Origin: an uncultured Deferribacterales bacterium
GTDB lineage: Bacteria > Chrysiogenota > Deferribacteres > Deferribacterales > Mucispirillaceae
Length of the DNA stretch: 64,000 nucleotides
Assembly: GCA_947853665.1 (NCBI GenBank)
Contig: CANTXF010000034.1
Coordinates: 34,805-98,804 of the forward strand
Direction: 5' to 3'
Shown: positions 8,940 through 31,622 of the stretch, one piece after another
Position numbering within the stretch: position 1 is the first letter of the stretch
How the letters are laid out: the number at the start of each line of letters is the position of its first letter
Translations under genes and position numbers: made by a program
The notes under the pieces: generated by a model
What the model was told of the DNA's origin: nothing
The model's input: the letters and a program-made list of their open reading frames with translations, nothing else
Databases searched by the model: none

Positions 8940-9320
8940 ATGAAAGCATTTGACGGAATATTATTCATAGTTTACAAAATAGCGATAAACGTTATCGCTC
9001 TGGGCCTCGTGGCGGCGGTTTTCAAACATGTGGAGGTTACGGATTTCGGCGTTCTCGTCGCAGCGGCCATAATACTTACCGGCCTTAACCTTCTTATAAA
9101 ACCCTTTCTCCTGCTTATATCCCTGCCGGTGGTCTTTCTTACCCTGGGGCTTGGATATTTTATAGTGAACGCTATAATAATCATGCTCACATCATGGGCG
9201 GTAAAAGGCTATCAGGTGGACGGTTTCTGGACGGCGGTAGGAGCCGGGCTTTTCGTAAGCGTGGTAAACGTCGTATTCGATTTTTTCGCCCAGAGCAGGA
9301 AGGACGAATTCAGGGGCTAG
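8940..9320 (+). CDS. small integral membrane protein (phage holin family 4 / DUF360-like, 4 TM)
   Basis: 127 aa, very hydrophobic, four predicted TM segments. I trimmed the start to the MKAFDGI ATG, because the longer ORF overlaps the convergent PHP gene. Confidence 0.5.
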   Translation: MKAFDGILFIVYKIAINVIALGLVAAVFKHVEVTDFGVLVAAAIILTGLNLLIKPFLLLISLPVVFLTLGLGYFIVNAIIIMLTSWAVKGYQVDGFWTAVGAGLFVSVVNVVFDFFAQSRKDEFRG

Positions 9321-9934
9321 AGCATATCCGCAACCAGTCTGTGGTCGTCTATGACAGGCGCGTCCCACAAAGGTTTTTTAAAAGCGGCAAAACGCGCTCC
9401 GCAGGCTTTTGCGGCGTAATAATCCGTAGGGGAATCGCCGATAAAAAGCGCCTCCCCCGGAGCTGCCCCGAAACGGGCGCATATCTTTAAAAGCCCCTCG
9501 GGAGACGGTTTAGGCAGGGATACGTCCCTGGAAGTTACCAGCATGTCGAAGTAATCTTTTATTTTAAAATATTCAAGCAGCCTGGGCAAAGATTTCCCCC
9601 TGTTGGTAAGCACCGCCATAGGCAGCCCTTTTTTCCTGACCGTCTCAAGCCCTTCCGGAAGCCCGGTTTCAAGCGTCATGGAATCGAAGGAATCGCCTTT
9701 CTCGTCATTGGAGGCAATATCCAGCATTCTGCGGTAAACCTCTTTGTCTCCTCCCGAAAGAACCTCCAGAATATCCCTGTCGGCCATGGAAAGGGCTTTA
9801 AGGCGCATATCCTCCTCGGACCAATCGACGGGAGGCAGGCCGCACCTGTCAAGCATCCAGTTATAATATGAAAGTATGGACTCTCTGCTGTCCACTATTA
9901 CCCCGTCGCAGTCGTATATTATAATTTTAGTCAT
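9317..9934 (-). CDS. HAD-superfamily hydrolase (phosphoglycolate phosphatase-like)
   Basis: The motif I reads IYDCDGVIVDS. Downstream HAD motifs include LTNR and GDSPTD. Confidence 0.75.
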   Translation of the reverse strand: MTKIIIYDCDGVIVDSRESILSYYNWMLDRCGLPPVDWSEEDMRLKALSMADRDILEVLSGGDKEVYRRMLDIASNDEKGDSFDSMTLETGLPEGLETVRKKGLPMAVLTNRGKSLPRLLEYFKIKDYFDMLVTSRDVSLPKPSPEGLLKICARFGAAPGEALFIGDSPTDYYAAKACGARFAAFKKPLWDAPVIDDHRLVADML

Positions 9935-10090
9935 TCAGGGAACTCCCTTCGTCCGTTCACATTTTGATGGAAGGACATAAATAGCAGAAAAAGTATATTT
10001 TTTCCAGAAAAAACACAGGCCATCGCCGATATATGGCAGGAAAATTGCTATATAGATACGGGGACAACTGTCTCCCGGGAAAAGTTTTCC

Positions 10091-10118
10091 TAAAGGCCAG
10101 GACGGTTTTATCCGATAT
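10091..10118 (+). promoter_or_regulatory. candidate sigma-28 (FliA)-type promoter upstream of fliD
   Basis: CTAAAG-N16-CCGATAT, compared with the consensus TAAAG-N15-GCCGATAA. It lies about 45 nt upstream of the fliD ATG. A second GCCGATAT sits at 10024-10031. Confidence 0.35.
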
Positions 10119-10164
10119 TTTACCGTAAGGATAAAGGCACCGAAATAAAAAAGGAGGTCACGCA

Positions 10165-12990: not shown

Positions 12991-13001
12991 GGGGGCATTT
13001 G

Positions 13002-13433
13002 ATGCAGACATCGGCTTATAAAAACTATCAGAGGCAGGAAGTGGAAGGCGCGACGAAAGGAAAAATAGTCGTCCTTCTTTTCGAGGGGGCGATTAAGTTC
13101 CTGAGAATAGCCTGCAAAAACATCGACGAAAAAAACATACAGGACTCGCACAATAATATCGTAAAAGCGGAAAATATCCTGTACGAGCTTATGTCCACCC
13201 TTAATATGGACGCGGGCGAAATTGCGGAAAACCTTATGAAGCTTTACGACTTTATGATATGGCAGCTTATCGAGGCCAACAGGGATAAGGACAAAAACAA
13301 GATAAACTCCGTCATAGAGCTTCTGACCCCGCTAAAAGACGCCTGGAAAGAGGTTGTGGAAAAAGAAGCCATATCCGTAGTAAAAAAACCGGTGGAAAAA
13401 AGCGAAATAAAATCCATAAACTTTGCCGGATAA
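13002..13433 (+). CDS. fliS: flagellar export chaperone FliS
   Basis: MQTSAYKNYQRQEVEGATKGKIVVLLFEGAIKF is a typical FliS four-helix bundle. The start sits after a GGGGG RBS and 12 nt after the fliD stop. Confidence 0.85.
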   Translation: MQTSAYKNYQRQEVEGATKGKIVVLLFEGAIKFLRIACKNIDEKNIQDSHNNIVKAENILYELMSTLNMDAGEIAENLMKLYDFMIWQLIEANRDKDKNKINSVIELLTPLKDAWKEVVEKEAISVVKKPVEKSEIKSINFAG

Positions 13434-13801: not shown

Positions 13802-15151
13802 ATGCCGCGTTATAAGAATTTTTTAATAACGGCCGCAGCGCTTTTTGCCCTGACAGGCTGCGGAGGAGGAGGCGGAAGCGATCCGGTGATTACGCCGGGA
13901 GAGACTGACGCCCCAAAACAGGTATCTTTCGGCATAGTGAAAACGGAAACGAAAGCCGTAATAAAAATAAAAAACGCCGGATTATCGGCCCTTATCATAA
14001 AAGACATCAATGTGACGGGCAGCGCCGATTTCAACAAATCAATAGAAAACGACAACTGCACCAACAAGGTAATAGCCGGATACGGTTCCTGCGATTTTAC
14101 CGTTATATTCTCGCCTTACGCTTCTTCTGAAAGCGGTATGTCCGAAGCCTCCGTTACTATAACATCCGACAGCTCCGTAAATCCGTCGGAAACCATAGCC
14201 CTTTACGGATACGGGGAAGGCTCCTGGAAAACCGCCGCTTCCGCCGGAACATCCTTTCCCGAAGCCCGTTACGGCCATTCGGCGGCTTCCACGGACAGCC
14301 TGTTTTATATTTTCGGCGGGATAGACGGAGCCGGTTTCAAAAACGACCTCTGGAGCGCCAACGGTTCAGGAGAATGGCTGGACCTTTCCTCCGGCTCCGA
14401 AAAGCCGGAAGCGCGGGCTTACGCGACGCTGCTGAATATAAAGGGCGATATTTATCTGTTCGGAGGCAAATCAAGAGGAGCGGGCGGAGCTGAAATATAT
14501 TTTAACGACGTGTGGCATTACTCGCCTTTCAGCAAAGTATGGGAACGCTTTACCGGCCAGACGGCAAACGGCCCGGAAGCGGATAAAACCTGTTCCTCCA
14601 ACGCGGTGACTCTTGACAACTATATATACTCCATAGCCCCCGATGGCGACGGCCCCGTAAAAATATACAGGCTCGACGTCGGAAACACGGCCCGGGTCTG
14701 GGAAACGGTAAACGCCTTTAACGCTCCCGTCCTTACGGGAAACCTTAAAGCCAATTCCGTAATCGATGGAAAAATATACGTTTTCGGCCTTTCAAAAACC
14801 GGCGCGGAAGAATTATGGGTGCTTGACCCGAAACTGCTCTTTTTCGAGAAAACCGTCCTGCCGGAAGGCCAGGAAATGCCCGCAGTAGGAAACGCCCCTT
14901 TCTCCGCCGTTCAGATGGACGGAGGCTTCGCCCTTTTTGCGGACAACGGAACGGACCCGCGTATGTGGAGCTATACGCCTGATGAAGGGTTCAGGGAAAT
15001 ACCTGCCACGGGCTGGATAACCGACCAGGAAGCCACGGCATTGACCGACTGGGCAGGTTCTTATTTTAATAAACATATTATAAGGTTCGGCGGTCGTTAT
15101 ATTACCGCCAGTGGAACTATCAATACAGGCGAATATATAAGATACGAGTAG
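13802..15151 (+). CDS. Kelch-repeat beta-propeller lipoprotein (NanM-like) with an N-terminal Ig-like domain
   Basis: The signal peptide ends in the lipobox LTGC. The protein contains repeated Kelch-type FGG/W motifs (ARYGHSAAS, IFGG, LFGG). Confidence 0.5.
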   Translation: MPRYKNFLITAAALFALTGCGGGGGSDPVITPGETDAPKQVSFGIVKTETKAVIKIKNAGLSALIIKDINVTGSADFNKSIENDNCTNKVIAGYGSCDFTVIFSPYASSESGMSEASVTITSDSSVNPSETIALYGYGEGSWKTAASAGTSFPEARYGHSAASTDSLFYIFGGIDGAGFKNDLWSANGSGEWLDLSSGSEKPEARAYATLLNIKGDIYLFGGKSRGAGGAEIYFNDVWHYSPFSKVWERFTGQTANGPEADKTCSSNAVTLDNYIYSIAPDGDGPVKIYRLDVGNTARVWETVNAFNAPVLTGNLKANSVIDGKIYVFGLSKTGAEELWVLDPKLLFFEKTVLPEGQEMPAVGNAPFSAVQMDGGFALFADNGTDPRMWSYTPDEGFREIPATGWITDQEATALTDWAGSYFNKHIIRFGGRYITASGTINTGEYIRYE

Positions 15152-19237: not shown

Positions 19238-19855
19238 CTACGGAGCCTGTTTTTCCTCATTGCTTTTATTATCCTGGCCGCTGTCCGGCCGTCCCGAAAA
19301 ATCCTTTTCTATTTTTTTGGAATCCTCTTTAAGCTGCCTGCCGATATTTTCAATGCTTTTTCCGATAGGGTCCTCCTTTACAAAGTCGTCAAAAGCTTTT
19401 CCGGCGTCGTTAGAGGCTGTTTCGTATAACGGATAGGATATAGTCATGCCTCCTGCGGGAGACGCATCCGCGGGAGAAACGTCTCCTGCAGGCTCATTTT
19501 CAGGCTCTTCCGCAGATGGAGCTTCCTGAGGAAGTTCCTCGTGAGATTCTCCACGGACGGGCTCTTCCGAAAGGGCGCTCCCGTTATCAGAGTTTTCAGC
19601 GGCAGGCGCTTCTGCCGCCCGGCTTTCTTCCGCCGGGGATTCCGCGCCTGAAAGGTTATCGCTTACGGCTTCAGAGGTATTATCCGCCGGAAGGACGGGC
19701 GCGGCGTCGATAATTTTGTGTATGTCTTCATTTATTCTATGGTCGGCGTTTTTAATAGTGTCCAGACCGTTCATTTTCTGAAACAGAAAAGCCCCGCCCA
19801 GAATAATGATAAAAATAAAACCGAAAACGATTATCGTTGACACCATATTTTTCAT
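19238..19855 (-). CDS. membrane-anchored acidic, low-complexity protein
   Basis: N-terminal TM helix followed by a Glu/Pro/Ala/Ser-rich tail. Confidence 0.4.
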   Translation of the reverse strand: MKNMVSTIIVFGFIFIIILGGAFLFQKMNGLDTIKNADHRINEDIHKIIDAAPVLPADNTSEAVSDNLSGAESPAEESRAAEAPAAENSDNGSALSEEPVRGESHEELPQEAPSAEEPENEPAGDVSPADASPAGGMTISYPLYETASNDAGKAFDDFVKEDPIGKSIENIGRQLKEDSKKIEKDFSGRPDSGQDNKSNEEKQAP

Positions 19856-19871: not shown

Positions 19872-20690
19872 TTATTTTTTGCTCATTTCCTTAGATTTGG
19901 CCGCCGCGGCCGACACCGCCTCGATAAAAGCGGCCCTGACGCCGCCTTTTTCAAGTTTATAGACTCCCTCTATCGTAGTTCCGGCCGGAGACGTTACCAT
20001 ATCTTTAAGGGCTCCAGGATGCATGCCGGTTTTAATAACCATTTCCGCCGCGCCTAAAACGGCCTGGGCCGCCATAAGGTAAGCGTCCTCCCGTTTAAGG
20101 CCGGCCATTACCCCGGCGTCGCCCATAGCTTCTATAACCTGAAAAATGAACGCCGGGCTGGAACCGGAAACGCCTACCACCGCGTCCATCTTATCTTCTC
20201 CAACCTCCACCGCCCTGCCGACGCAGGAAAAAAGGCTTAAAACAGTGTCTATATCCTTTCTGTCCGCCGCGCCTCCGCCGCAGACCGCGCTCATGGCCTG
20301 CCTTACAAGGGCCGGGGTATTAGGCATTACCCTGACGACTTTCCTGCCGCCGCCCATAAAGGACAGCATATCCGCAACTGAAAGACCTGCCACCACGGAA
20401 ACTATCACGCAGTCTTTTCCCAGAGACGGAGCTATCATCCTCAGCAGCCGTTCAGCCGCGTCCGGTTTAACGGCGATTATTATAACGTCGCAAAGAGCCG
20501 CTATCTCCAAAGGAGACGAAGGCCTTACACCCAGCTTTTCCGCAAGGGAAGCGACCCTGCTTTCTTTATTATCGGCAACGAAAATAGCCTGCGGCGAAAC
20601 CGTGCCGGAGGAAACCATGCCTTCGATAAGCGCTCCGCCCATATTGCCCGCGCCTATAACCCCCAGCTTTATGTTGGGCATACCGTTCAT
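19872..20690 (-). CDS. proC: pyrroline-5-carboxylate reductase
   Basis: Rossmann motif IKLGVIGAGNMG plus conserved ProC core motifs. I placed the start at MNGMPNIK after an AAGAGGG RBS. The ATGA overlaps the upstream hydrolase stop. Confidence 0.85.
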   Translation of the reverse strand: MNGMPNIKLGVIGAGNMGGALIEGMVSSGTVSPQAIFVADNKESRVASLAEKLGVRPSSPLEIAALCDVIIIAVKPDAAERLLRMIAPSLGKDCVIVSVVAGLSVADMLSFMGGGRKVVRVMPNTPALVRQAMSAVCGGGAADRKDIDTVLSLFSCVGRAVEVGEDKMDAVVGVSGSSPAFIFQVIEAMGDAGVMAGLKREDAYLMAAQAVLGAAEMVIKTGMHPGALKDMVTSPAGTTIEGVYKLEKGGVRAAFIEAVSAAAAKSKEMSKK

Positions 20691-21559
20691 AAGGAAACCC
20701 TCTTTACCCATTTTACTATATCTTCCCTTACGCGCTCCAGGCGGGGCAGCGTGAGTATATGCTGTATTTTCATGGCCTTATTGTCGTATATATGCAGAGT
20801 TTTATCAACGGAAGCCATGCCTGAAAAAATATCCACGGCTTTTGCCGGGGACACTAGTATATCGCTCCTTGAAATGCCAAGCATAACGGGAACGCTTATG
20901 TTTTCCGCCGAACCGTTAACGATACTCTGCAAAAGCCTCATGTCGTACAGAGACTTTACGGGAAAACCCGGATAGTTATAAGGCTTTTCCCAGTCCTTTA
21001 ATTTTCTGGGTACGTATTTTATAGCGTATCTAAGATATTTTACAAGAGGAAAGCCCGGAACCCTCACTTTAAATGCCGGAGCCAGCAGTCCGAGAGCGGA
21101 GACTTTATTGCGCATAGCCGCGGCGCAGGCAAGAAGGCCTCCGTTAGACTGGCCAATAACCGTAACCGAACGGCATGAACGGGATAAAGCGGAATATGGG
21201 GCCGCAAGGCTTTCGTACCAGTCCGCCCAGCCGGTTTTTATAAGGGCGTCCATATTTGCTCCGTGGCCCGCGACTCTGGCCGCGTATACGGTAAAGCCTT
21301 CCTCCTCCAGCGCGCGGGCCACAGGCAGCATTTCCCAGGGGGACGAGCAGAAACCGTGGATAAGCATAACTCCATCAGGGCCGCCTTTTTTAAAATAAGG
21401 CATGGAAAGCGGCTCCGATACGCCCTCCTTTACGGCAAGCTCCGCGTCACGCAGGAATATGGCTTCCGGGTCTCCGTCCTCTATCTTAAACGGTTTTATT
21501 TCATCCATATAACGCCTCCCGTAAGAAACAAGAATATTGCGAAAAAAAGCGAGGGGCAA
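20687..21559 (-). CDS. alpha/beta hydrolase (esterase/lipase family)
   Basis: GQSNGG nucleophile elbow and a HGF oxyanion-hole motif. Confidence 0.7.
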   Translation of the reverse strand: MPLAFFRNILVSYGRRYMDEIKPFKIEDGDPEAIFLRDAELAVKEGVSEPLSMPYFKKGGPDGVMLIHGFCSSPWEMLPVARALEEEGFTVYAARVAGHGANMDALIKTGWADWYESLAAPYSALSRSCRSVTVIGQSNGGLLACAAAMRNKVSALGLLAPAFKVRVPGFPLVKYLRYAIKYVPRKLKDWEKPYNYPGFPVKSLYDMRLLQSIVNGSAENISVPVMLGISRSDILVSPAKAVDIFSGMASVDKTLHIYDNKAMKIQHILTLPRLERVREDIVKWVKRVSL

Positions 21560-21580
21560 GCAAAAAGAAGCCAGGTCAGA

Positions 21581-22579
21581 TTACAGGCAGGAAAAAATCC
21601 GCCCGGAAACGCCGTCGTTAAGGCTGCGGAAAAAAACGTCCCTCATCCTGTCGTACCTGGGGGCAAAATGATGAAACCGCACAAAATCCGAACCGGACCT
21701 CAGAAAAATGTCTTTAGCCAGGTCCAGCGTAAGGTGATTTTTAACGGCCGCATGCAGCACCTCGGCCTTCATAAATACAGCCTCTATTATCAAAAGGCAT
21801 GAACCGGAAGCAAATTTTACGGCTTTAGCGTAGTTTTCGAATGACGGGGCTATGTCGGTTATATATGTAACGTCCTGAGGTTTTTTGTATTCGACTACGG
21901 CTTTTTCCAACCGGTTTAGAGGTATTTCCTTTTCGCCCTCCGGCGTGGACGCTTTTATGAGGGTATCGGGCTTCATACCGTTGCGCAGGGCGTTTTTAAG
22001 CTCCTTTATCCATGCTCCGCTGAGCAATCCCTCGTCTTTAAGCCGATTTTTCATTACTGAAATATTTACCGGCTCCCTTACTCTATACCCGACGGACGTT
22101 ATGCCTCCGTGGTCAAAAAATTCATAGCCCAGGGAAAAACCTTCCCCAAGGTCTACTTCCCCTTCCGGAGCCTCCGCCTCCCTGCGGGCAAAGGCCTCCC
22201 TCGCGGAAAACACGGCGGCCCTGTTGCCACCGGGAGTAAGCTCCGCAACATAAAAGGTAAGGTCGTAATCTTTTATAAGGTTCCAGTTATAGCCGGCCAG
22301 ACGGCCTTCCACGTTTCCGATAAAACCCTCCGGGCCGAAAAACCTTATCGTATTGCCGGAAGCCAGACACCCCCGCAGGAACCGGTCGAAGCCGGAAAAA
22401 TGGTCTATGTGGGTATGGCTGACAAAAACGTCCGAAATGTCCAGCAGCTCCGAATTATCTACGTTGCCGAGCCTGCCGCAGTCAAAGAGGACGGCGCGTT
22501 TCCTGTAAACGTTTCTCATAAAGAAAGCGCTGTCGTCAAAGGGAGAATTTATAGCTTTAACCGTAAAATTAAACTTCAT
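21581..22579 (-). CDS. MBL-fold metallo-hydrolase (RNase Z-like)
   Basis: SHTHIDH H-x-H-x-D-H motif. Confidence 0.7.
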   Translation of the reverse strand: MKFNFTVKAINSPFDDSAFFMRNVYRKRAVLFDCGRLGNVDNSELLDISDVFVSHTHIDHFSGFDRFLRGCLASGNTIRFFGPEGFIGNVEGRLAGYNWNLIKDYDLTFYVAELTPGGNRAAVFSAREAFARREAEAPEGEVDLGEGFSLGYEFFDHGGITSVGYRVREPVNISVMKNRLKDEGLLSGAWIKELKNALRNGMKPDTLIKASTPEGEKEIPLNRLEKAVVEYKKPQDVTYITDIAPSFENYAKAVKFASGSCLLIIEAVFMKAEVLHAAVKNHLTLDLAKDIFLRSGSDFVRFHHFAPRYDRMRDVFFRSLNDGVSGRIFSCL

Positions 22580-24123
22580 TTAATAAGGGTTTTAAATATC
22601 CTTTCAACATTCTCCGAAACGGAACCGGTAGTCTCCGTAACCAGCTCCGCCTCGGGCATTCTGGCGGACTCCTTCTGAGCCCGGTATATTGCGGGCCTGC
22701 CGTCCGAAACCACATCTCTGGCAAGCCTTTCTTTAAGACGCTCCATAATAACGCCGTCGGGAGCGGTAAACTGAAAAAACCTTAACTTTCCCGTATCCGC
22801 CTTTTCAAACTCGTTGAGATATTCCGGCTCAATAAACGAAGCGTCCACCAGGCAGCCGCGCCCTATGCTTATTTTTGAAGCAACGGCGGCAGCCATATTA
22901 GCGTAAACCTTTATGGAATTCTCTTTGGAATATACTCCTTTGCCGTAATCAAGATACATTTTTTCCGTAATGGGCACGCCGGCTTCTTTCTTCCTTACCT
23001 CGTCGGAATTTACGCGGCATACGGGAAAGCGCTCCGCAAAGGCTTTGGCATTTCTGGATTTGCCGGTGCCCATTATGCCGTAAAAAAGCGGAGTTTCCAT
23101 TCCGTCCGCGCAGAGAGCGTAATAGGCGGACATATCTATAAGCCGCGAAACTTCCGCTTTTTTGACGGAATAACCTTCCCAGGCCTCGTCCTTGCCGTCC
23201 AGAAGAAAGCAGGTAACTTTAGCTCTCACATAAGCCAAATAGGAGCGGTAGTAATTAAGCAGCTTCACGCTGTCACCGTCCGGAAAGACGGAAAGAAAAC
23301 CTTCCGTAAAACCGTCTGCAAACTCCGTGCGGCCGGACATATCAAGCTCCATGGAAAGAAAAGCCGCCTCCGCTATAACGTCCATATATCTGAAACGTTT
23401 ATTAAATTCTATACAGTCGATAAGGCCGACGGAGCCGTTTTCATTAAAATATATATGCTCCAGGCGCAAATCCCCGTGGCCGTTTTTAACAAAGCCGCTT
23501 TCGGCCCTTTTATTGAAAATTTCCCTGTTTTCATCAAGAAATTTAAGGCTCTTTCTTTTTATAAATTCGTAGGAATCCATATCAATGAAAGAACCGGCGT
23601 ATTTCTCCGTCTGGCTGAAATTTTCTTCCGCGTTAAATTTTACGGAAGAAAAGGCGTCCGGAAAATCAGGGTCCTCCGGGGCCCTTTCCAGCCTTTTAAG
23701 AAGCTCCGCCGTCTCGGAGCCGATACGGACCATGCAGGCGTAATCTATCGCGCCCTCCGATATGCGGCTGGCGAGAAAATCTCCGTCGGCTATGCGCTTC
23801 ATTTTCAGCACGTATTCTATGGCTGTAAGGCTGTTTTCCACCGGAACCAAAGCGAAGGTATCGCCGGAACGGCGCACGAGCTTCATAACTTCGAGATATA
23901 TGCCTTCGGAAAATCTGTCGTTAAGCTCTTTTTCCAGTATGCAGAAAGCCCTGCGGCTTTTTAACGACCTGTAATCCAGAAAACCGAAGTCCACCGGTTT
24001 TTTGATTTTATAAACATAATCGTCAGCAAGCACCGCGTAGGATATGTGGGTTTCCTTAACTTCGCGGGCGCCAGTCAGCTTTTTGACAAGCTCCACCGAG
24101 GAAGGCATTTTGGAGTCTTCCAT
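22576..24123 (-). CDS. bifunctional kinase-like protein: N-terminal APH/protein-kinase-like fold plus C-terminal P-loop (AAA_33-type) kinase
   Basis: The HGDLRLEHIYF catalytic loop places the N-terminal half in the kinase-like fold. A GIMGTGKS Walker A lies in the C-terminal half. The gene overlaps its neighbours by 4 nt. Confidence 0.6.
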   Translation of the reverse strand: MEDSKMPSSVELVKKLTGAREVKETHISYAVLADDYVYKIKKPVDFGFLDYRSLKSRRAFCILEKELNDRFSEGIYLEVMKLVRRSGDTFALVPVENSLTAIEYVLKMKRIADGDFLASRISEGAIDYACMVRIGSETAELLKRLERAPEDPDFPDAFSSVKFNAEENFSQTEKYAGSFIDMDSYEFIKRKSLKFLDENREIFNKRAESGFVKNGHGDLRLEHIYFNENGSVGLIDCIEFNKRFRYMDVIAEAAFLSMELDMSGRTEFADGFTEGFLSVFPDGDSVKLLNYYRSYLAYVRAKVTCFLLDGKDEAWEGYSVKKAEVSRLIDMSAYYALCADGMETPLFYGIMGTGKSRNAKAFAERFPVCRVNSDEVRKKEAGVPITEKMYLDYGKGVYSKENSIKVYANMAAAVASKISIGRGCLVDASFIEPEYLNEFEKADTGKLRFFQFTAPDGVIMERLKERLARDVVSDGRPAIYRAQKESARMPEAELVTETTGSVSENVERIFKTLIK

Positions 24124-24126
24124 AAG

Positions 24127-24789
24127 CTACTCTCCTTCTATACCCAAAAGCAGATAAAAATCCCCGTTTTCAGGGTTTATCCAGCTGTCCAGCTCTCGAA
24201 CGGAATTTAAAAGACCCTCCGAACGCTGTCTGGAATAAGTTTTAAGCTCAGAGCGCGCCTGAGAGCCGGAAGAAACGGTTAAAGAGGATAACTCGTTATC
24301 CACCTTTACCTTTATCATGCGGGAAAGCTCTCCCATCGCCTGAATCCTGGCCGCCCTCTTTTGCCCGGGCAGCCCTCCGCTGCCGGGCGCGGCGGAACCT
24401 ACCGCGGTATACGCGTATCCCTGTACGGCCGGGTCAGTTACCCATACGGGATACCCGTTTATCACGGGATATACGGTGCCGGTACCGGGACGTTTTTTTT
24501 CTTCCGCGCGGGCGGGGCTGGGCTTTTCTTCAATATACCCGCCTTTTTTGTAAGATGAGCTTTCGCCGGAAGAATACTTCGGCGCGGCTTCACGTTCGGC
24601 CGCGCTATCCGCAGGGCGGCCTTCGCCGGACGTTTCGCCGTCAAGCTCCTTAAAAGCCGCATCAGCCGCGCGCAGGCTTTCCGAACGGGCGGAAAGGTCC
24701 TTTTCCGAAACGGACGCTTTAGGCGAACAGGCGGACAAAACGGAGCATAAAAACAAAGCGGAAACCGCCGTCAGACAGACGGCTCTCAT
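24127..24789 (-). CDS. lipoprotein with a C-terminal LPP20/FlgP-like domain (paralog 3)
   Basis: Lipobox LSAC, a long disordered linker, and C-terminal PVWVTDP...GYAYTAVGSA...AARIQAMGELSRMIKVKV matching the LPP20 pattern. Confidence 0.5.
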   Translation of the reverse strand: MRAVCLTAVSALFLCSVLSACSPKASVSEKDLSARSESLRAADAAFKELDGETSGEGRPADSAAEREAAPKYSSGESSSYKKGGYIEEKPSPARAEEKKRPGTGTVYPVINGYPVWVTDPAVQGYAYTAVGSAAPGSGGLPGQKRAARIQAMGELSRMIKVKVDNELSSLTVSSGSQARSELKTYSRQRSEGLLNSVRELDSWINPENGDFYLLLGIEGE

Positions 24790-24953
24790 CTGGTCTCCCT
24801 GTCAAGTTCCATCATCCCCTGTCTTGCGGAGTTTTCAGAGCGGTTTTTTACCGCGTTTTTATACATTTCGTGTTCGTATGCGGATTTTGCGCCGCAGGCC
24901 GCCGTTGCGGCCAATACGGCAAGGCTCAATATAAAAGCTGCAATCTTTCTCAT
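24786..24953 (-). CDS. small lipoprotein (55 aa), absent from the ORF track
   Basis: AAGGAGG RBS 7 nt upstream. The protein reads MRKIAAFILSLAVLAATAACGAKSAYEHEMYKNAVKNRSENSARQGMMELDRETR. Its TGA stop overlaps the downstream ATG. Confidence 0.45.
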   Translation of the reverse strand: MRKIAAFILSLAVLAATAACGAKSAYEHEMYKNAVKNRSENSARQGMMELDRETR

Positions 24954-24971
24954 AAAAACGGCCTCCTTAAA

Positions 24972-25382
24972 TTATCTGGCCCTCATATAAACGTAAAGCT
25001 CTCCCGTTGACGGGTCCGTCCACGAGTCCGCTATAAAGGCGCTTATCGTCCTGCCAGAAACCGTCTGCACGGAATAGGATGAAACGGCAGAATCAGAACC
25101 GGCGCCGGACGCCTCGGAGTCTACTTTAAGCACGCTTGATACCGTTACGCCCATCTGGCGCGCTATTTCGTCTATGGCTCTCGAAACGGCTAGCTCGCGC
25201 TGGCCGGTTTTGCCTTTTATGTGGCTGCCGCACACGCCTACTCCGCCGGTATAGCCTTCGCCGGACGGCGAATATACCCACGCGGGCATACCGGAGGAAA
25301 CGGCCTCAGGCGCCTTTCCTCTGTGGGCGCAGCCGACGGCGGCGGCAATAACGAGCGCCGCGGCAATAAGCTTAAAGGTCAT
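24972..25382 (-). CDS. LPP20/FlgP-family lipoprotein (paralog 2)
   Basis: Lipobox AVGC. The segment PAWVYSPSGEGYTGGVGVCGSHIKGKTGQRELAVSRAIDEIARQM fits the LPP20 core. I placed the start at MTFKLIAA. Confidence 0.6.
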   Translation of the reverse strand: MTFKLIAAALVIAAAVGCAHRGKAPEAVSSGMPAWVYSPSGEGYTGGVGVCGSHIKGKTGQRELAVSRAIDEIARQMGVTVSSVLKVDSEASGAGSDSAVSSYSVQTVSGRTISAFIADSWTDPSTGELYVYMRAR

Positions 25383-25453
25383 GGAAAAATACGTCCTTCC
25401 GTGAATAATACAAAGGCAGCCCGAAAGCTGCCTTATAAAGAACATTCGAAAAA

Positions 25454-26041
25454 TTACTGGGCTCCGCCGCTTTTAAATTCTTCCTTAATGGCGGCGTCAA
25501 GCTCGTCCTGCGCTTTTTTGGCCTGAAACTGCTGCCATAAAGCCTGGTCGTTCTGGAAGCTGGAAAGAGACTGCTCCTTTATGGCGGCGCGGGCCATTTC
25601 GGCGTCCACTCCCACAAGGATATAAAGCTCGTTGCAGGGAGATACCCAGGAGCCTATCTGCTTAGAGCCGGAAATCATTTGGGACGCTACCTGCTTAGAC
25701 ACGTTGGCGGACACCTTATCCACCGTTTCCTCATTGCCAAGGCCCGTAGACTGGGTAAAGTTTTTAAACATATTATTTACTTTAAGGGACAGAGTCCTCG
25801 CTATTTCGTCCCTTCCGTTTGCCAGGGCTTCCGTCCTGGCGAAATTAAGGCCGGCTTTGCCTATCTGGGCCGCTCCCACGGCGGAAACGCCGCCTTCGGC
25901 CCCGCCGGCCATTACCCAGTCGGGAGCGCCGACGAGACAAGCGGCTACTTCAGGAGCATTCTGCTCAACGGTGGAAGTTTTACTCCCGCATCCGGCCACG
26001 GCCAGAGACAATATCACGGCTGCAAATAACGTTTTTTTCAT
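25454..26041 (-). CDS. LPP20/FlgP-family lipoprotein (paralog 1)
   Basis: Lipobox VAGC. The segment APDWVMAGGAEGGVSAVGAAQIGKAGLNFARTEALANGRDEIARTL matches the LPP20 core. A GGAGG RBS precedes the MKKT start. Confidence 0.55.
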   Translation of the reverse strand: MKKTLFAAVILSLAVAGCGSKTSTVEQNAPEVAACLVGAPDWVMAGGAEGGVSAVGAAQIGKAGLNFARTEALANGRDEIARTLSLKVNNMFKNFTQSTGLGNEETVDKVSANVSKQVASQMISGSKQIGSWVSPCNELYILVGVDAEMARAAIKEQSLSSFQNDQALWQQFQAKKAQDELDAAIKEEFKSGGAQ

Positions 26042-26086
26042 ATAAATTTCCTCCATAAGACTCTTTTGCGCATACTACAATCTAAA

Positions 26087-27178
26087 TCATCGCCTTTCAA
26101 GGATTATTTCATCCTCGTCCATGCGCGTTACTTTGTATTTTCCGTTCCTTGTGAGAAACGAAGCCAGATAATAAGTTTTTTCCGGATAATCGGCTAAAAC
26201 CGCGTTTAAGCCCTGCTCCTTAACGTCCAGAACGAATGGGACGTTCTTAATATCGTCCCTCAGCTCCCTGAAAAGGCGCGGGTCGTTATCCCCTTTAAGC
26301 GCTACGCGCACGGTTTTTGCGTTATCTCCTAAAATTTTCTGGGAAACAGCGGATACCAGCTTCACGGAAGCGTTTTTGGACATACCTTTAAGCATTCCGT
26401 AAACAGCGTCCGTTTCCGTAGCGCCCTGACCGCGGCCGGTAAGGGAGCCGGAGGCTATTACCGCGTCCGCCCCGCCGGAGCTTCCTATAAGTTTCCAGTC
26501 CAGCTCTCCAGACATTATACTGAAATTTACCTTCGCATATCCCACGTCGTTTCCCTTGGAAAAGACGTTTATTCTGCCTATAAGCATGGTGGAAGCCATA
26601 TATTTGCCGGAAAGCTCCTTCAAAGCGGAATAATCCCCGGATCTTAGGGCTTTGTCAAGAGCCGCCCCGGCGTTTCCACCGGCGGAAGCCGCGTCCGTTA
26701 CTTCAAAACCTTTTTCAGTAAGGCCCTTTATAACAGCCTCGCTGAAAGGCTGCCCGTAAAGAATCTCTCCAGAAGGGAGAACGGCGGGAAGCAGAACCGC
26801 GACGGAGGTATTTTTTGAAAAACCGTTTACCAGATTTTTCGCCCCGTCGGGAGTTATTTCCGCCTTTATGGAAACCCAGTATATGTTTCCGTCCTTTCCT
26901 TCGTCCGTAATGCTGAAACTTTCCACTGTGCCTGTAAGCTCCGACTTAACGGCCTCCTCCGCCAGCTGGGCGTTGCTTATTATGGTGTCCAGCTTTATTT
27001 TAACGCCGGAAGCCTGTTCAAGGGCGGCCCATTTGGCTCTGGAAACGGCCATATTTTTAGCCGAAGGCACGTCCCCCCTTACTATCTCCGCCTCGCCCAG
27101 AGCCTCCACGGTTACGGCAGACGCAGGAGAAACGCAAAAAACAACCAGAATAAGGACATGCGCTATTTTTTTAAGCAT
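26087..27178 (-). CDS. secreted FlgT-like protein (N-terminal LPP20-like fold plus middle and C-terminal domains)
   Basis: Signal peptide, then EALGEAEIVRGDVPSAKNMAVSRAKWAALEQASGVKI, an LPP20/FlgT-N-like fold. Length and domain order resemble Vibrio FlgT. Assigned by pattern only. Confidence 0.4.
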   Translation of the reverse strand: MLKKIAHVLILVVFCVSPASAVTVEALGEAEIVRGDVPSAKNMAVSRAKWAALEQASGVKIKLDTIISNAQLAEEAVKSELTGTVESFSITDEGKDGNIYWVSIKAEITPDGAKNLVNGFSKNTSVAVLLPAVLPSGEILYGQPFSEAVIKGLTEKGFEVTDAASAGGNAGAALDKALRSGDYSALKELSGKYMASTMLIGRINVFSKGNDVGYAKVNFSIMSGELDWKLIGSSGGADAVIASGSLTGRGQGATETDAVYGMLKGMSKNASVKLVSAVSQKILGDNAKTVRVALKGDNDPRLFRELRDDIKNVPFVLDVKEQGLNAVLADYPEKTYYLASFLTRNGKYKVTRMDEDEIILERR

Positions 27179-27179
27179 A

Positions 27180-28376
27180 TTATTTCCCCACGGCGGAGCG
27201 CTTTACGTGGCTTCCTATTTTTACGCCGCGCAGCGCCGCGTCAGGGCCTTCCACATAACCCCAGGAACCGGCGGAAGATATCTGGTCGGATATTATTATT
27301 CTGGCGTTGAGCTTTATAAGGCTGCATTTCGTCTCTTTCGTGAGAAAATCCGTCGCTATCTGAACGTCGTAAACGTCCATAACGTCGCCTTCGTGAACCC
27401 CGTTGTCGGAGCCCAGGTTTATCTGAGCGACCTTTTTGCCCCCGCGCATTTCGTTAATATAGCCGTTCATCTCAAACAGGCCGGTAAGCTCGCTTCCGGC
27501 GGCCTTTACCGCGTCCCCCATTATGCGCTTGGCCGTGTTGATTATTATATCCGCCTGAAAGTTGGAGCTCTGGGTCGCCCTTTCTTTCGAGTTTACCGTT
27601 TTGGAATAAATCACCTTTCCGGTTTCGGCGTCTATAAGATTAAGAGTAACGGAGGCGGAAACGAACCAGCCGGAAGCGGCCGCGTCGTACCCGGCGGAAA
27701 GGGCCGATATTATAGTGCCGAAATCGGAATTATCGCTCTTTACGTTGGTGGGAGCCACATAATTTGCCTGAATGTTGTCCACAGAGCCTGTAAATATATA
27801 TTTTACTCCCGAAAGGCGGCCGAATTCCATAACGCTGTCCGGGTCGGCCATGGTCATCTGAAACTGCTGTTCCTGCAATATCTTATCCAGATGGGAACGG
27901 TTTACGAGAGTAACGCCGCCAAGCTGAGAAAGGGTCTCCTCCGTTACGCTTTGGGCGAAAGTGCCCAGAGACGGGGCGAACTGGCCCATAAACTCCGAGC
28001 TGTTGCTGGAATAGGCCGAAACCGTGCTGCTCGCGCCTACGCCCACCCCTGTATAGCGGCCGCGTCTGTCCACCCTGCCAGCGCCGACGGCAGCTCCTAC
28101 GGTGTTGCTTACTCCGGCGGTATTTGTCTGGCTGTTTTTAACGGTCATATCCCCGTAACCCGTGTTATTGGCGAACTCTACCACGGCGACTTCCCATTTT
28201 CTCGCTTCGTAAAGGTACTCGCAGTCCTTAGGTATGTTTACCGTTTCCTGGTCCTGAGGCATAGGCGCAATGCCCGTAAGGTCAAGATGCTTTTTGCCTC
28301 CGCACGAAACCGCGCCCAGCAGAAGCAGCGGGAGCATAAGTAGCTTAATGATGTACACGTCGCAAATTCTCCGCAT
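27180..28376 (-). CDS. CsgG-family outer-membrane lipoprotein with a low-complexity insertion and a C-terminal extension
   Basis: Lipobox AVSC. CsgG core motifs align with E. coli CsgG: VAVVEFANNTGYG, NRSHLDKILQEQQFQ, YIFTGSV and SVTLNLIDAETGKVIYS. Confidence 0.55.
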   Translation of the reverse strand: MRRICDVYIIKLLMLPLLLLGAVSCGGKKHLDLTGIAPMPQDQETVNIPKDCEYLYEARKWEVAVVEFANNTGYGDMTVKNSQTNTAGVSNTVGAAVGAGRVDRRGRYTGVGVGASSTVSAYSSNSSEFMGQFAPSLGTFAQSVTEETLSQLGGVTLVNRSHLDKILQEQQFQMTMADPDSVMEFGRLSGVKYIFTGSVDNIQANYVAPTNVKSDNSDFGTIISALSAGYDAAASGWFVSASVTLNLIDAETGKVIYSKTVNSKERATQSSNFQADIIINTAKRIMGDAVKAAGSELTGLFEMNGYINEMRGGKKVAQINLGSDNGVHEGDVMDVYDVQIATDFLTKETKCSLIKLNARIIISDQISSAGSWGYVEGPDAALRGVKIGSHVKRSAVGK

Positions 28377-28379
28377 TGT

Positions 28380-29060
28380 TTATTTATTTTCCTCCATAGC
28401 TTTCATTACCATCTGGAGATCTATCCACGCTTCCTTTTTTCTCTCCGGCGAACGCAGCAGGAACGCCGGGTGATAGCTCAGCATTACCCGGCATCCCTGA
28501 AATGAACGCCAGGTGCCCCTTACCTGAGTTATTTTAACGCTGGCCCCAAACAGGTGCGTAACCGCCACGGAACCGAGACAAATTATAAATTCCGGGCCTA
28601 TCATTCTTATCTGTTCTTTAAGATAGCCTATGCAGGAGGCGGCTTCGTCCGCGTCCGGGTTTCTGTTGCCGGGAGGGCGGCATTTTACGATATTTGCTAT
28701 ATACACTTCTTCCCGTTTCAGGCCCATGGCGGCTATCATTTTCGTGAGAAGCTGCCCGGCTTTTCCTACAAACGGCCTCCCGGTGGCGTCCTCGTCCGCC
28801 CCCGGGCCTTCACCTATGAACATAAGCCTGGCTTTCGGGTTCCCTTCTCCGAAAACGGTGTTGGTTCTGGTGGCGGCAAGACGGCACCCGCCGCAGCGCG
28901 ACACTTTGTCCTTTAAAAGCGCGAGCCCCTTTTCCGCCTCCTCCCGCGAAATGGCGGCGGATGGCTCCTGGCATACGGCTTCCTGAGCTGCCGGCGCAGG
29001 CTTTATAATATCTGCCACGCCGTAAACCTCCTCCATAGGGTCTTCCGGAAAAAGTTTCAT
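28380..29060 (-). CDS. udg: uracil-DNA glycosylase, family 4
   Basis: GEGPGADEDATGRPFVGKAGQLL motif, with a 4Fe-4S Cys-rich region near the N-terminus. The stop is 3 nt before the CsgG-like start. Confidence 0.8.
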   Translation of the reverse strand: MKLFPEDPMEEVYGVADIIKPAPAAQEAVCQEPSAAISREEAEKGLALLKDKVSRCGGCRLAATRTNTVFGEGNPKARLMFIGEGPGADEDATGRPFVGKAGQLLTKMIAAMGLKREEVYIANIVKCRPPGNRNPDADEAASCIGYLKEQIRMIGPEFIICLGSVAVTHLFGASVKITQVRGTWRSFQGCRVMLSYHPAFLLRSPERKKEAWIDLQMVMKAMEENK

Positions 29061-29229
29061 ACACCCGCCTCCCCTGGCCGGTTTTAAGGCTTAACACGGC
29101 CGCTGATAAATCGTATATTCCATATTATCATAATCATACGATTTTTAACAGTTCTTTTGAATTCCCATTGACGAAATATAAAATATGGATTTTAATAAAC
29201 TATCAGAAACAATAATAACCGGAGCTCCA

Positions 29230-29847
29230 ATGCCATCCAGAAAGCCGAAACGCGGCAGACTGTTCGTAGTGTCCGCGCCCAGCGGCGCGGGAAAATCCAC
29301 TTTGTGCGCCATGATGCTCAAAAAATACCCGGAGCTCAGGTATTCCGTATCCTATACCACAAGGGCCCCCAGAGGTACGGAAAAGGACGGGGCCGATTAT
29401 TTTTTCGTATCTGAGGACAAATTTCTTGACATGGCCGGAAAAAACGAGTTTCTGGAATGGGCCGAGGTTCACGGCAATTATTACGGAACCTCCGCGAAAG
29501 TAATAGAGGAAATGCTTTCCGCCGGTACAGACGTTTTTCTGGATATAGACCCTAAAGGCGCCATGCAGCTGAAAAAAAAGGCGGAAAACGGCGTGTTCAT
29601 ATTCATATCCACCCCGTCTTTCGATATTTTAAGGGAAAGGCTTATAAAAAGAGGCACGGATAAACACGATTCCATAGAAAGACGGCTTTTAAACGCCAGG
29701 GAAGAGATAAAATATTTCGCGGATTACGACTACCTTATAATAAACGACGAAAGCGACGAGGCTTTTCACGATATGGAAGCCATATACAGGGCGGAAAAAT
29801 TAAAAACCGCCCATATAACCGAAATATCTGACTTTATGAGCATATAG
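29230..29847 (+). CDS. gmk: guanylate kinase
   Basis: Walker A SAPSGAGKST, plus SVSYTTRAPRGTEKDGADYFFVS. GGAG RBS before the MPSRK start. Confidence 0.85.
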   Translation: MPSRKPKRGRLFVVSAPSGAGKSTLCAMMLKKYPELRYSVSYTTRAPRGTEKDGADYFFVSEDKFLDMAGKNEFLEWAEVHGNYYGTSAKVIEEMLSAGTDVFLDIDPKGAMQLKKKAENGVFIFISTPSFDILRERLIKRGTDKHDSIERRLLNAREEIKYFADYDYLIINDESDEAFHDMEAIYRAEKLKTAHITEISDFMSI

Positions 29848-29864
29848 CAAGGAGATTTTTTAAA

Positions 29865-30152
29865 ATGGCATTTTTGGATATCGAAAGAATAATCAATCAG
29901 GACTCCATAGGCAGCAGATTCAAGCTGGTGCATCTGGCAGGGCTCAGAGCCAAGGAGCTGAATAACCCGACGGACGAAACCTATATGTCGGGATATAAAA
30001 CCGGCCAGAAAGTAACGTCCAGAGCTCTCTCGGATATAGTCTGCGGCAAAATCGCCTTTGAAGAAGCGGAAAGGCGCGATTTCAGGACGGAAGAAGAAAC
30101 CCCCGTTTCCCCGGAGCCGGAAGCAAAAGCGGAAGCGGAAGAAGAAAAGTAA
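29865..30152 (+). CDS. rpoZ: DNA-directed RNA polymerase omega subunit
   Basis: 95 aa, NQDSIGSRFKLVHLAGLRAKEL, in the conserved gmk-rpoZ context. Confidence 0.7.
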   Translation: MAFLDIERIINQDSIGSRFKLVHLAGLRAKELNNPTDETYMSGYKTGQKVTSRALSDIVCGKIAFEEAERRDFRTEEETPVSPEPEAKAEAEEEK

Positions 30153-30195
30153 AAATACCGGCGGGCGGATAACTCCCCGTCCGCCGTCTTTCTGC

Positions 30196-31557
30196 CTATT
30201 TGCCTCCGCCGGCCAGTATGGCCCCTTCCGTAACGATTATCCCTGCGATATCTTTTTTAGAGCGTTTTCCCGTTTCGGAAACTTTTCCATCTCTGAAAAA
30301 CAGCTTTACATCGTTAAAATCAGAATCGAAGCCTATATCTTTTCTGGATACGTCGTTTGCCACTATAATATCCAGATTTTTTTCGAAAAGTTTTTTTAAA
30401 GCGTTTTTTTCCAGGTCTTCCGTTTCGGCTGCGAAGCCTATAAAAATCTGGCCTTCCTTTTTATTAAGAGAAGCTTCTTTTAGGATATCCTTGGTTTTTA
30501 CAAGCTCCAGGCTGAGCCTTTCCCCTTCTTTTTTGATCTTCTCCGGCGCGGCGCTTTCCGGGGCGTAATCGGCGACGGCGGCGGCCATTATAAGTATGTC
30601 GTATTCAGAGACCCGCTTTTCCACGGCTTCGGCCATATCGCGGCCGCTTACGGCGATAACGGTGTCAGGCACCCGCGAAACAAGGCCGGTCTCCCCGGAA
30701 ACGAGTGTAACGTCCGCGCCCATGTCCAGGGCCGCGTGGGCCACAGCGTACCCCATTTTACCGCTGGATCTGTTGCTTATGTAACGCACAGGGTCTATAT
30801 ATTCCCTGGTAGGGCCGGCGGTAACAAGTATTTTCAGCCCCTCAAGAGGCCTGCCCGCGGCAAAGCCCTCAAGACTCTCCTCCTCCGTTTCGTCGTTATC
30901 GAGATATTCCTCCAGAGTTCTCCCGCCGAATTCTTCAAGAATATCCTTCACCTTGTCTCCGTCCGCTTCGGGGGTTTCAGGCTCCGTATCTCCGGCGGAC
31001 ATCTCCGGCGCGACGGATTCTACGGGCCTTTCTCCAAGAATATTCAAAACGGCGTCCGCTATTTTTTCAGGGTCTTTCATTCTGCCTTTGCCGGTGTCGC
31101 CGCAGGCAAGGTCTCCCTCGTCCGGCTCTATAATATGCGCCCCCCATGATTTAATCCTTTCTATGTTGGAGCGCACCGCCGGATGCGAAAGCATATTGCA
31201 GTTCATAGCCGGAGCGAAGGCAACGGGGCACCCAAGAGCGAGCAGAACGGATAGAAACGGGCTGTCGGCCACGCCGGAAGCGTATTTACCGATAGTGTTC
31301 GCGGTAGCCGGAGCCACAAGGCACAAATCGGCCCATTTCGCCAGCTCTATATGGCTTACGGGAGAATCCTCCTCCCCGCCGGAAAATGAAACGCGCCTGC
31401 CGGAAACGGCAGCTAGAGTAAGGGGGCCGATAAATCTGGCCGCTTCTTCCGTCATCATAAATCTGACGGAATGGCCTGCCTTAATAAAAATACGGGCTAA
31501 AGCCGGAGTTTTATAGGCGGCGATCCCGCCGGAAACCCCGATAAGAATATTGCTCAT
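30196..31557 (-). CDS. coaBC: bifunctional phosphopantothenoylcysteine decarboxylase / phosphopantothenate-cysteine ligase
   Basis: N-terminal flavoprotein motif ILIGVSGGIAAYK, followed by the C-terminal CoaB ligase domain. Confidence 0.85.
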   Translation of the reverse strand: MSNILIGVSGGIAAYKTPALARIFIKAGHSVRFMMTEEAARFIGPLTLAAVSGRRVSFSGGEEDSPVSHIELAKWADLCLVAPATANTIGKYASGVADSPFLSVLLALGCPVAFAPAMNCNMLSHPAVRSNIERIKSWGAHIIEPDEGDLACGDTGKGRMKDPEKIADAVLNILGERPVESVAPEMSAGDTEPETPEADGDKVKDILEEFGGRTLEEYLDNDETEEESLEGFAAGRPLEGLKILVTAGPTREYIDPVRYISNRSSGKMGYAVAHAALDMGADVTLVSGETGLVSRVPDTVIAVSGRDMAEAVEKRVSEYDILIMAAAVADYAPESAAPEKIKKEGERLSLELVKTKDILKEASLNKKEGQIFIGFAAETEDLEKNALKKLFEKNLDIIVANDVSRKDIGFDSDFNDVKLFFRDGKVSETGKRSKKDIAGIIVTEGAILAGGGK

Positions 31558-31622
31558 AAAAGAACTCCGGAAAAACAAACCGCCGGAAGATCATTTCCGG
31601 CGGCCGGTACGTTTAAAATATT

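Follow-up and report, generated by a model that had tools for sequence, protein, structure and literature searches.

We have analysed a 64,000-nucleotide stretch of DNA (hereafter the window) from an uncultured Deferribacterales bacterium of the Mucispirillaceae (assembly GCA_947853665.1, contig CANTXF010000034.1, positions 34,805 to 98,804). Its minus strand carries a run of closely spaced genes that a preliminary description had presented as a single eleven-gene unit, from udg to proC, with a CsgG-like, a FlgT-like and three LPP20-like proteins at its core. The functional entity is a compact envelope module rather than an eleven-gene operon. Its invariant core is two tightly coupled genes, encoding a CsgG/TolB-N-like lipoprotein and a secreted FlgT-like protein, and the lineage of the window adds to this pair three SHS2 (LPP20) lipoproteins and one mini-lipoprotein. 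The module probably shares the ancestry of its parts with flagellar outer-membrane rings. On balance we favour the view that it forms an outer-membrane-anchored periplasmic scaffold, related in fold to the H-ring and basal-disk proteins and probably not flagellar. No description of the module as such was found in the literature searched.

Proteins of the module

The features of the module are as follows.

27180..28376, minus strand: CsgG/TolB-N-like outer-membrane lipoprotein, 398 amino acids (aa), with a C-terminal FlgT_C-like beta domain
27993..28160, minus strand: Gly/Ser/Thr-rich insertion, residues 73-128 of the CsgG-like protein (from composition and the structural model)
26087..27178, minus strand: secreted three-domain FlgT-like/LipL46-like protein, 363 aa
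25454..26041, minus strand: LPP20a, Lpp20 (HP1456)-type lipoprotein (PF02169, 37.4 bits; cut-off 25.9)
25413..25434, minus strand: terminator-like hairpin after LPP20a, with a 9-bp GC-rich stem, in a 71-nt gap
24972..25382, minus strand: LPP20b, divergent LPP20-like lipoprotein (PF02169, 19.8 bits, under the 25.9 cut-off)
24786..24953, minus strand: lip55, 55-aa mini-lipoprotein (lipobox, and an AAGGAGG Shine-Dalgarno site 7 nt upstream)
24127..24789, minus strand: LPP20c, lipoprotein with its LPP20 domain at the C-terminus and a long low-complexity linker (PF02169, 29.1 bits; cut-off 25.9)

The CsgG-like protein has a lipobox, the cysteine of which is kept in >90% of family members, and matches the Pfam CsgG family (PF03783) with 35.3 bits against a cut-off of 20.8. 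It gives weaker matches to LpoB and FlgT_C. The insertion at residues 73-128 has a combined Gly, Ser and Thr content of 45%, compared with 23% in the remainder of the protein. It is modelled as disordered by AlphaFold2 (AF2), with a predicted local distance difference test (pLDDT) score <50, and its length varies in homologs from about 20 to 50 residues. The insertion follows the first strands and precedes the first long helix, a location that we take to be similar to that of the CsgG constriction loop. The C-terminal beta domain (residues about 304-395) is modelled with a pLDDT of about 90. Pfam, lipobox, composition and AF2 model therefore agree on the CsgG-family lipoprotein, with its insertion and beta domain, that had been proposed from the translation.

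The FlgT-like protein has a signal of the signal-peptidase-I type and no lipobox. FlgT_N (PF16548) is matched at 31.4 bits (cut-off 28.8), and in 16 of 16 family members (best E 1.9e-9). FlgT_M (PF16539) and FlgT_C (PF16538) were found in none of 16 close members (E<=0.1) and none of 10 distant ones (E<=0.01). In the AF2 model an SHS2 domain (residues 22-123) is followed by an alpha/beta domain that is TolB-N-like at the level of the fold (125-283) and by a small alpha/beta domain (289-362) of beta-alpha-beta-beta-alpha-beta-beta order. The N-domain groups with the SHS2 proteins Lpp20, FlgP and FlgT_N. It shares with Campylobacter jejuni FlgP (PDB 9HMF) both the SHS2 fold and a segment that joins the helix to the second strand. 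This segment forms a hairpin in FlgP; here (residues 61-83) its pLDDT is <50, and at the same position there are segments of 27-40 residues in the FlgT-like N-domain and all three LPP20 paralogs. Vibrio cholerae FlgT has 377 aa, with domains at 24-109, 121-287 and 292-377. The suggestion of a secreted protein with an LPP20-fold N-domain and the size of FlgT is thus upheld, both by FlgT_N above its cut-off and by the Foldseek comparison discussed below.

An exhaustive profile search returned 1633 representatives of the FlgT-like family at E<=1e-3 and 364 at E<=1e-10, mostly full-length at 360-400 aa. Distant members with a named source belong to metagenome-assembled genomes (MAGs) of Proteobacteria, Acidobacteriota and Desulfococcus. 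Of ten distant members sampled, three match no Pfam family at all and the others FlgT_N alone. The LipL46 model (NCBIfam NF033164) matches 43 of 53 members of the family, with a best E of 6.7e-14. The window protein aligns to it over residues 23-251 with 18.8 bits, against a cut-off of 400, and is therefore a distant homolog of LipL46 and not an ortholog. Leptospira LipL46 is described as a major outer-membrane protein and reported to be surface-exposed and plasminogen-binding (PMC9779477). Both are envelope proteins of diderm bacteria, but LipL46 is a lipoprotein whereas the window protein has the signal-peptidase-I signal described above.

TolB-N-like domains occur in both proteins of the pair. 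Recent tandem duplication of the two genes was nonetheless rejected because hhalign sees no relationship between the two families (probability 1.6%).

All three LPP20 paralogs and lip55 carry lipoboxes. The earlier count of three LPP20 lipoproteins therefore stands as to the lipoboxes, and as to the Pfam scores of two of them, LPP20b lying under the cut-off. The LPP20a family profile matches Helicobacter pylori Lpp20 (5ok8_A) with E 2.9e-5, positions 2-155 aligning with residues 6-168, near full length. By sequence search the LPP20b and LPP20c profiles have no solved relatives; profile comparison links LPP20b to both LPP20a and LPP20c. The likely start of LPP20a is the ATG at 26041, with a GGAGGA Shine-Dalgarno site ahead (the longest open reading frame, ORF, reaches 26056), and that of LPP20b, with lipobox AVGC, is the ATG at 25382 (longest ORF 24972-25445). 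Orthologs of LPP20b are present in the three nearest relatives of the window (L003-L005, the L-numbers denoting the loci compared below) and in Termitispirillum (L001/L012). Those of LPP20c adjoin the pair in the Aquificaceae loci L015 and L018 and in L036, and the distant locus L036 also has an LPP20a-like gene in the equivalent position (E 9e-64). The 55-aa lipoprotein is a true gene, having a Shine-Dalgarno site, a lipobox and positional orthologs with lipoboxes in L004 (13174-13329) and L005 (10899-11051). Both of these copies have an AFKDLD-type motif in common with the N-terminal part of LPP20c, and the L005 copy matches the LPP20c profile (E 1.4e-7).

The LPP20 paralogs and C. jejuni FlgP are lipoproteins of one Pfam family, but the paralogs have neither a flgQ-like partner nor a flagellar context. 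A comparable cluster of LPP20-fold proteins is the lpp20 operon of H. pylori (HP1454, HP1456/Lpp20 and HP1457), which likewise combines Lpp20-type lipoproteins with a secreted three-domain protein that begins with an LPP20-like domain (PMC11756786). HP1454 matches the FlgT-like protein over the first domain only, with 87 aligned residues. The H. pylori operon is not known to include a CsgG-like gene.

Some relatives of these proteins have unusual architectures. P0156 (3464 aa), found by profile match, contains 16 copies of part of the middle domain of the FlgT-like protein; several proteins of about 630-710 aa, among them P0088, P0099 and P0107 (631-708 aa), carry a full FlgT-like unit at the C-terminus. 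In L014, L015, L018 and L038 (Aquificaceae MAGs and metagenome contigs) the FlgT-like protein carries a fused N-terminal extension. In the 577-aa fusion of L015, the sole one scanned, the extension is a C-type lectin domain, and that gene is followed by those for an LPP20c-like lipoprotein and for a small beta-barrel protein of the outer membrane. In L005 alone, a 366-aa Tyr/Gly/Asn-rich ORF (9206-10306) with a signal peptide stands between LPP20a and LPP20b; by its composition it is probably an outer-membrane beta-barrel.

Conservation of the pair and transcription of the block

Related loci were gathered by scanning 185,579 species genomes and metagenome data and by looking up contigs, and were annotated using tblastn and hidden Markov models built for this analysis. 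This gave about 70 loci; homologs of the pair or of the FlgT-like gene are clear in about 35 of them, and the remainder have only weak matches to CsgG/LpoB-like paralogs. Wherever the contig allows, the CsgG-like and FlgT-like genes are adjacent in the annotated loci, with the exception of Termitispirillum. An adjacent pair with a strong CsgG-like gene away from a contig end is found in L003-9, L013-15, L018-20, L029-32, L036, L038, L040 and L042/43/45. The gap between the two genes is <=17 nt, or they overlap, in about two-thirds of these loci; it is 26-260 nt by ORF calls in L006-L009, L029, L030 and L031/32, with an inserted gene in L031/32. The pair is present in Deferribacterota MAGs, including ones assigned to Flexistipes, Calditerrivibrio, Seleniivibrio and Mucispirillaceae, and also in Aquificaceae MAGs, one Campylobacterota MAG and several metagenome contigs. 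The genes that flank it are entirely different from locus to locus. Invariant cysteine pairs, together with the lipoboxes and the signal peptide, point to a periplasmic or outer-membrane location. The Proteobacteria MAG locus L033 has a weak FlgT-like paralog where the CsgG-like gene would stand.

No FlgT-like gene was found in the Termitispirillum loci L001 and L012. There the expected position, between the CsgG-like and LPP20b-like genes, is taken in Termitispirillum reticulitermitis by a 75-aa secreted protein of PKAEAPKV-type repeats (L001 11180-11407, L012 5176-5403). The Mucispirillum matches L021-L024 were tried as orthologs of the CsgG-like protein and rejected. Together with L019 (8474-9478) these loci (about 9770-10771) encode a different, separate lipoprotein of about 333 aa with a CsgG/LpoB-like domain and a C-terminal TPR-like region. 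This family has a weak DUF6340 match and the LQEQQFQM motif that is also present in the CsgG-like protein, and it is solitary in the genome.

Several non-flagellar partners of the pair recur across phyla. LPP20 proteins accompany it in the window and in L003-5, L015, L036 and L001/12; SLH-domain proteins in L019, L031, L033, L035, L040, L042 and L045; FecR in L030, L033 and L036; and CHASE2 proteins in L033, L036 and L006-9, in the last of which a CHASE2 cyclase follows the pair. In other Deferribacterota the genes after the pair encode a CHASE2 cyclase, PFK, DJ-1, FecR/OmpA or HisRS. The order in L036 is CsgG-like, FlgT-like, LPP20, FecR, LPP20, CHASE2 Ser/Thr kinase, PP2C and FHA, and in L033 it is SLH, weak FlgT-like paralog, FlgT-like, FecR and CHASE2 cyclase. 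In L069 a LysM protein and the FlgT-like protein stand beside a Ser/Thr kinase, RodA/FtsW, SLT and a PBP.

In the window itself, twelve co-directional minus-strand ORFs run from 29060 down to 19238. Eleven of these lie where the preliminary description had placed them; the twelfth (19238-19855) lies 16 nt past proC and extends the supposed unit. Taking the longest ORFs, the gaps from udg onward are 3, 1, 30, 8, 18, -4, 3, -4, 21, -25 and 16 nt, so that one exceeds the limit of 21 nt that had been stated for all. If the starts supported by Shine-Dalgarno sites are used, three junctions widen to 45, 71 and 72 nt. Four ATGA or 4-nt overlaps had been claimed; ATGA overlaps are present at only three junctions, lip55/LPP20c, kinase/MBL (metallo-beta-lactamase-fold protein) and hydrolase/proC, the last when the Met8 start is used. 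Scanning the window for Rfam families and tRNAs gave no match.

The 71-nt gap after LPP20a folds with a dG of -20.7 kcal/mol (z -3.1), and GC-rich hairpins of differing sequence occupy the same position in L003, L004 and L005, that is, in all four members of the clade. In L004 and L005 they are followed by runs of U6-U8 and have the look of textbook intrinsic terminators; the tail in L003 is U-rich and interrupted. Because structure is conserved here in the absence of sequence conservation, transcription probably ends or is attenuated after LPP20a, and a single transcript of eleven genes is therefore doubtful. An internal terminator was among the features that the preliminary description had itself named as refuting a single unit, and judged from the sequence the block is probably more than one transcript. 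A consensus scan gave one sigma-70-like promoter candidate ahead of the block:

29133..29161, minus strand: sigma-70-like promoter candidate TTCAAA-17-TATGAT, 9/12 matches

The candidate lies where udg and gmk diverge, in a gap of 124 nt. In more distant relatives (L006, L030 and L019, three lineages) strong sigma-70-like promoters stand instead directly upstream of the CsgG-like gene, and so of the pair.

Function of the module

By analogy with known ring-forming proteins, we propose that the lipid-anchored proteins would be suspended from the inner leaflet of the outer membrane. A ring or lattice would arise by oligomerisation of the TolB-N-like domains, as is the case in all relatives with a characterised structure (CsgG, PelC, FlgT, TraT and PqiC). 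The soluble FlgT-like partner and the LPP20 proteins would then add further layers through SHS2-SHS2 and beta-sheet contacts, in the manner of FlgT, FlgP and FlgO in the Vibrio H-ring. The outcome would be a scaffold in the periplasm, below the outer membrane, with a stabilising or spacing role in the envelope. In other lineages SLH or LysM partners might couple it to the cell wall, or FecR and CHASE2 might connect it to transmembrane signalling. The conserved hairpin after LPP20a would separate, or attenuate, two expression units.

The preliminary description preferred a flagellar role, in which the expansion of paralogs would widen a basal disk. In such a structure the FlgT-like protein would form a ring round the LP-rings of a polar flagellum, and the CsgG-like and LPP20 lipoproteins would make concentric lipid-anchored rings in the roles of FlgO and FlgP. 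Much of the structural evidence is compatible with this and weighs against a non-flagellar scaffold. The top Foldseek matches of the FlgT-like model are Vibrio FlgT 3w1e (E 6e-10, 313/356 columns) and 8z5n, the length and domain boundaries fit V. cholerae FlgT, and FlgT_N is above its Pfam cut-off. The N-domain aligns to residues 69-169 of C. jejuni FlgP (E 1.3e-4), including the ring-forming hairpin segment, with few short gaps outside the hairpin region. In the lipoprotein family FlgT_C is matched in 11/13 members and FlgT_M in 7/13, and the domain repertoire of the module as a whole is that of the Vibrio FlgT/FlgP/FlgO H-ring (PDB 3W1E, 8Z5N, 9YEF, 9YDS). Shared by the two are SHS2 lipoproteins, one further outer-membrane lipoprotein and a secreted protein of about 370 aa with three domains, SHS2 and TolB-N-like among them. 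fliD (10165-12990) and fliS (12897-13433) are present in the window, as had been noted and as Pfam confirms. The named taxa with the strict pair all are, or may be, polar flagellates, and Deferribacterota generally have flagellar genes (PMC12887300). Two further points weigh against the scaffold: AF2 gave models of moderate quality (mean pLDDT 68 for the CsgG-like protein, with its TolB-N-like domain, from an alignment of 13 sequences, and 75 for the FlgT-like protein from 16), and no CHASE2, FecR or SLH gene was found among the window genes examined. The proposed link to signalling or tethering thus comes from other lineages.

The genomic context argues otherwise. In about 35 loci from several phyla, where the pair or the FlgT-like gene has a clear homolog, no flagellar gene was found beside the module, and among the neighbours in annotated loci there were no flagellar Pfam families, including flgOP, motXY and flg cluster context. 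The proximity of fliD and fliS is unique to the window, this synteny not being kept elsewhere. In C. jejuni and H. pylori flgP lies apart from other flagellar genes and the flagellar genes are scattered, so that lack of adjacency is only moderate evidence. The FlgT-like family never has detectable FlgT_M or FlgT_C; in Vibrio FlgT these lie within one polypeptide, whereas in the window the FlgT_C-like domain is on the lipoprotein instead. Unlike the Vibrio H-ring, the module is unlinked to flagellar, motX or motY genes, and its FlgT-like family is far larger than Vibrio FlgT and occurs beside FecR, CHASE2, SLH and peptidoglycan-related genes, contexts that together with the homology to LipL46, a non-flagellar protein, do not suggest a flagellum. 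The promoters ahead of the pair are of sigma-70 type. H. pylori Lpp20, the closest solved relative of LPP20a, binds FlgP and FapH, yet its deletion leaves motility and motor structure unchanged (PMC11756786). Termitispirillum bears flagellar genes, yet has a CsgG-like gene with no adjacent FlgT-like gene; because of those flagellar genes it cannot serve as a non-flagellated control. Flexistipes keeps the pair; motility is lacking in its type strain, which has 36 COG-N genes, compared with 81 and 103 in motile relatives. A Flexistipes MAG from an oil reservoir is reported to have flagellar biosynthesis genes, and the supplement of PMC12887300 returned nothing on Flexistipes or on flagellin counts. 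We therefore regard a flagellar disk or H-ring as doubtful: the fold and family assignments (CsgG-like, FlgT-like, three LPP20 and the mini-lipoprotein) hold, and the flagellar role preferred for them finds no support in context. The alternative that had been offered, an unrelated outer-membrane complex, fits better, except that the CsgG-type pore proposed for it is not borne out. A CsgG-type secretion channel would have the lipoprotein form an oligomeric outer-membrane beta-barrel, lined or spanned by the Gly/Ser/Thr-rich segment, with the FlgT-like and LPP20 proteins as periplasmic adaptors or exported substrates. The CsgG match is above the Pfam cut-off in 13/13 members, a lipobox is present as in the curli channel, and the long Gly/Ser/Thr/Val-rich segment has a predicted short hairpin. 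Against this, the match is limited to positions 30-164 of the 210 in the profile, a PDB sequence search with the family profile retrieved nothing, CsgG included, and the non-pore ring proteins HpaA, FlgT, PelC, LpoB and TolB match equally well. CsgG has two transmembrane beta-hairpins per protomer. The AF2 monomer shows no extended hairpins; its only long insertion, variable in length, presumably does not lie where those of CsgG are. The CsgG-like protein further differs from CsgG, PelC, LpoB and GNA1162 in its extra FlgT_C-like beta domain and variable Gly/Ser/Thr-rich loop, and the partner genes of curli and Pel systems are absent: no csgE-, csgF-, csgA- or csgB-like gene was found in the window or any related locus, and no repeat-rich substrate nearby. 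A channel is thus very unlikely. Similarly improbable is one operon of eleven or twelve genes, in which the envelope proteins would act in a single pathway with the kinase, MBL protein, hydrolase and proC. Short gaps, three ATGA overlaps and conservation of the whole block in L003, L004 and L005 are in its favour, and a simple scan sees no strong canonical terminator within the block besides the hairpin after LPP20a. That hairpin is nevertheless kept in four genomes despite divergence of sequence, three gaps of 45-72 nt precede starts with Shine-Dalgarno support, the translations of the kinase, MBL protein, hydrolase and proC genes show no signal peptides, and these genes follow the module only in these three nearest relatives, other Deferribacterota having different genes after the pair.

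For the periplasmic scaffold that we favour, a broader proposal can be made. The module may be a phylum-spanning, outer-membrane-anchored ring or lattice of the periplasm, a non-flagellar stock that supplied the FlgT, FlgP and FlgO of flagellar outer-membrane rings, and, in many lineages, part of a FecR relay of the state of the outer membrane or wall to CHASE2; taken as a whole we think this unlikely. Operons of FecR (with or without LysM) and CHASE2, e.g. Burkholderia BiofilmReg, have already been described (PMC5192318), and no link of such sensors to the CsgG-like/FlgT-like/LPP20 module was found in the literature searched. FecR or CHASE2 genes follow the module in the loci given above but neither type is among the window genes examined. 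If our reading is right, the labels 'flagellar assembly protein T N-terminal domain-containing' and 'CsgG/HfaB family', as given by automatic annotation, would cover a separate and widespread envelope module, and a systematic annotation bias would be corrected. The module would be a concrete candidate source for the accessory rings of high-torque flagellar motors and a testable partner for the FecR/CHASE2 sensors, and it would give Leptospira LipL46, a vaccine and diagnostic antigen, a structural context. Were the module instead flagellar, FlgT-type H-rings would extend beyond the Gammaproteobacteria.

Flanking genes

The remaining genes of the block are as follows.

28380..29060, minus strand: udg, family-4 uracil-DNA glycosylase (PF03167, E 7e-40; TIGR00758, 202 bits)
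22576..24123, minus strand: kinase-like protein, APH and AAA_33 (Pfam), cytoplasmic, no signal peptide
21581..22579, minus strand: MBL-fold RNase-Z-like protein (NCBIfam PRK02126, 280.7 bits, under the 315 cut-off)
20687..21559, minus strand: alpha/beta hydrolase (PF12146, E 1e-19)
19872..20711, minus strand: proC, pyrroline-5-carboxylate reductase (named from the preliminary reading of the translation alone)
19238..19855, minus strand: twelfth ORF, 205 aa, 16 nt after proC (ORF call)

Adjacency alone relates udg, the kinase, the MBL protein, the hydrolase and proC to the module; all five are housekeeping genes with cytoplasmic products. udg, which is upstream of the pair in most Deferribacterota loci, is a housekeeping neighbour outside the envelope module; the conserved upstream neighbours in this phylum are yicC-gmk-rpoZ-coaBC-udg. 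The likely start of the hydrolase is the ATG at 21508, with a GGGAGG Shine-Dalgarno site ahead, and that of proC is the ATG at 20690, which gives the ATGA overlap with the hydrolase stop. Orthologs of proC are at the same place in L003-L005, with 46-51% identity. The 205-aa protein has an N-terminal hydrophobic segment, likely a membrane anchor, and an acidic low-complexity tail rich in Ala, Glu, Pro and Ser. A Pfam scan gave no match to it, and only its N-terminus is conserved, in L003.

In the window (29185-31578) gmk-rpoZ is opposite in strand to coaBC and udg, and the same is seen in L005. The yicC-gmk-rpoZ-coaBC-udg-pair series is wholly co-directional in other Deferribacterota, which makes this a local inversion in the clade of the window.

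Three further observations concern the rest of the window. FliD is unusually long at 941 aa, with FliD_N at residues 11-105, FliD_C at 625-926, and between them an insertion of about 500 residues that has no Pfam match. Directly after fliS, on the plus strand, there is a 449-aa predicted lipoprotein with Kelch-repeat beta-propeller matches (13802-15151). On the minus strand a 355-aa ORF at 43131-44198 matches no Pfam family at E<=0.001.

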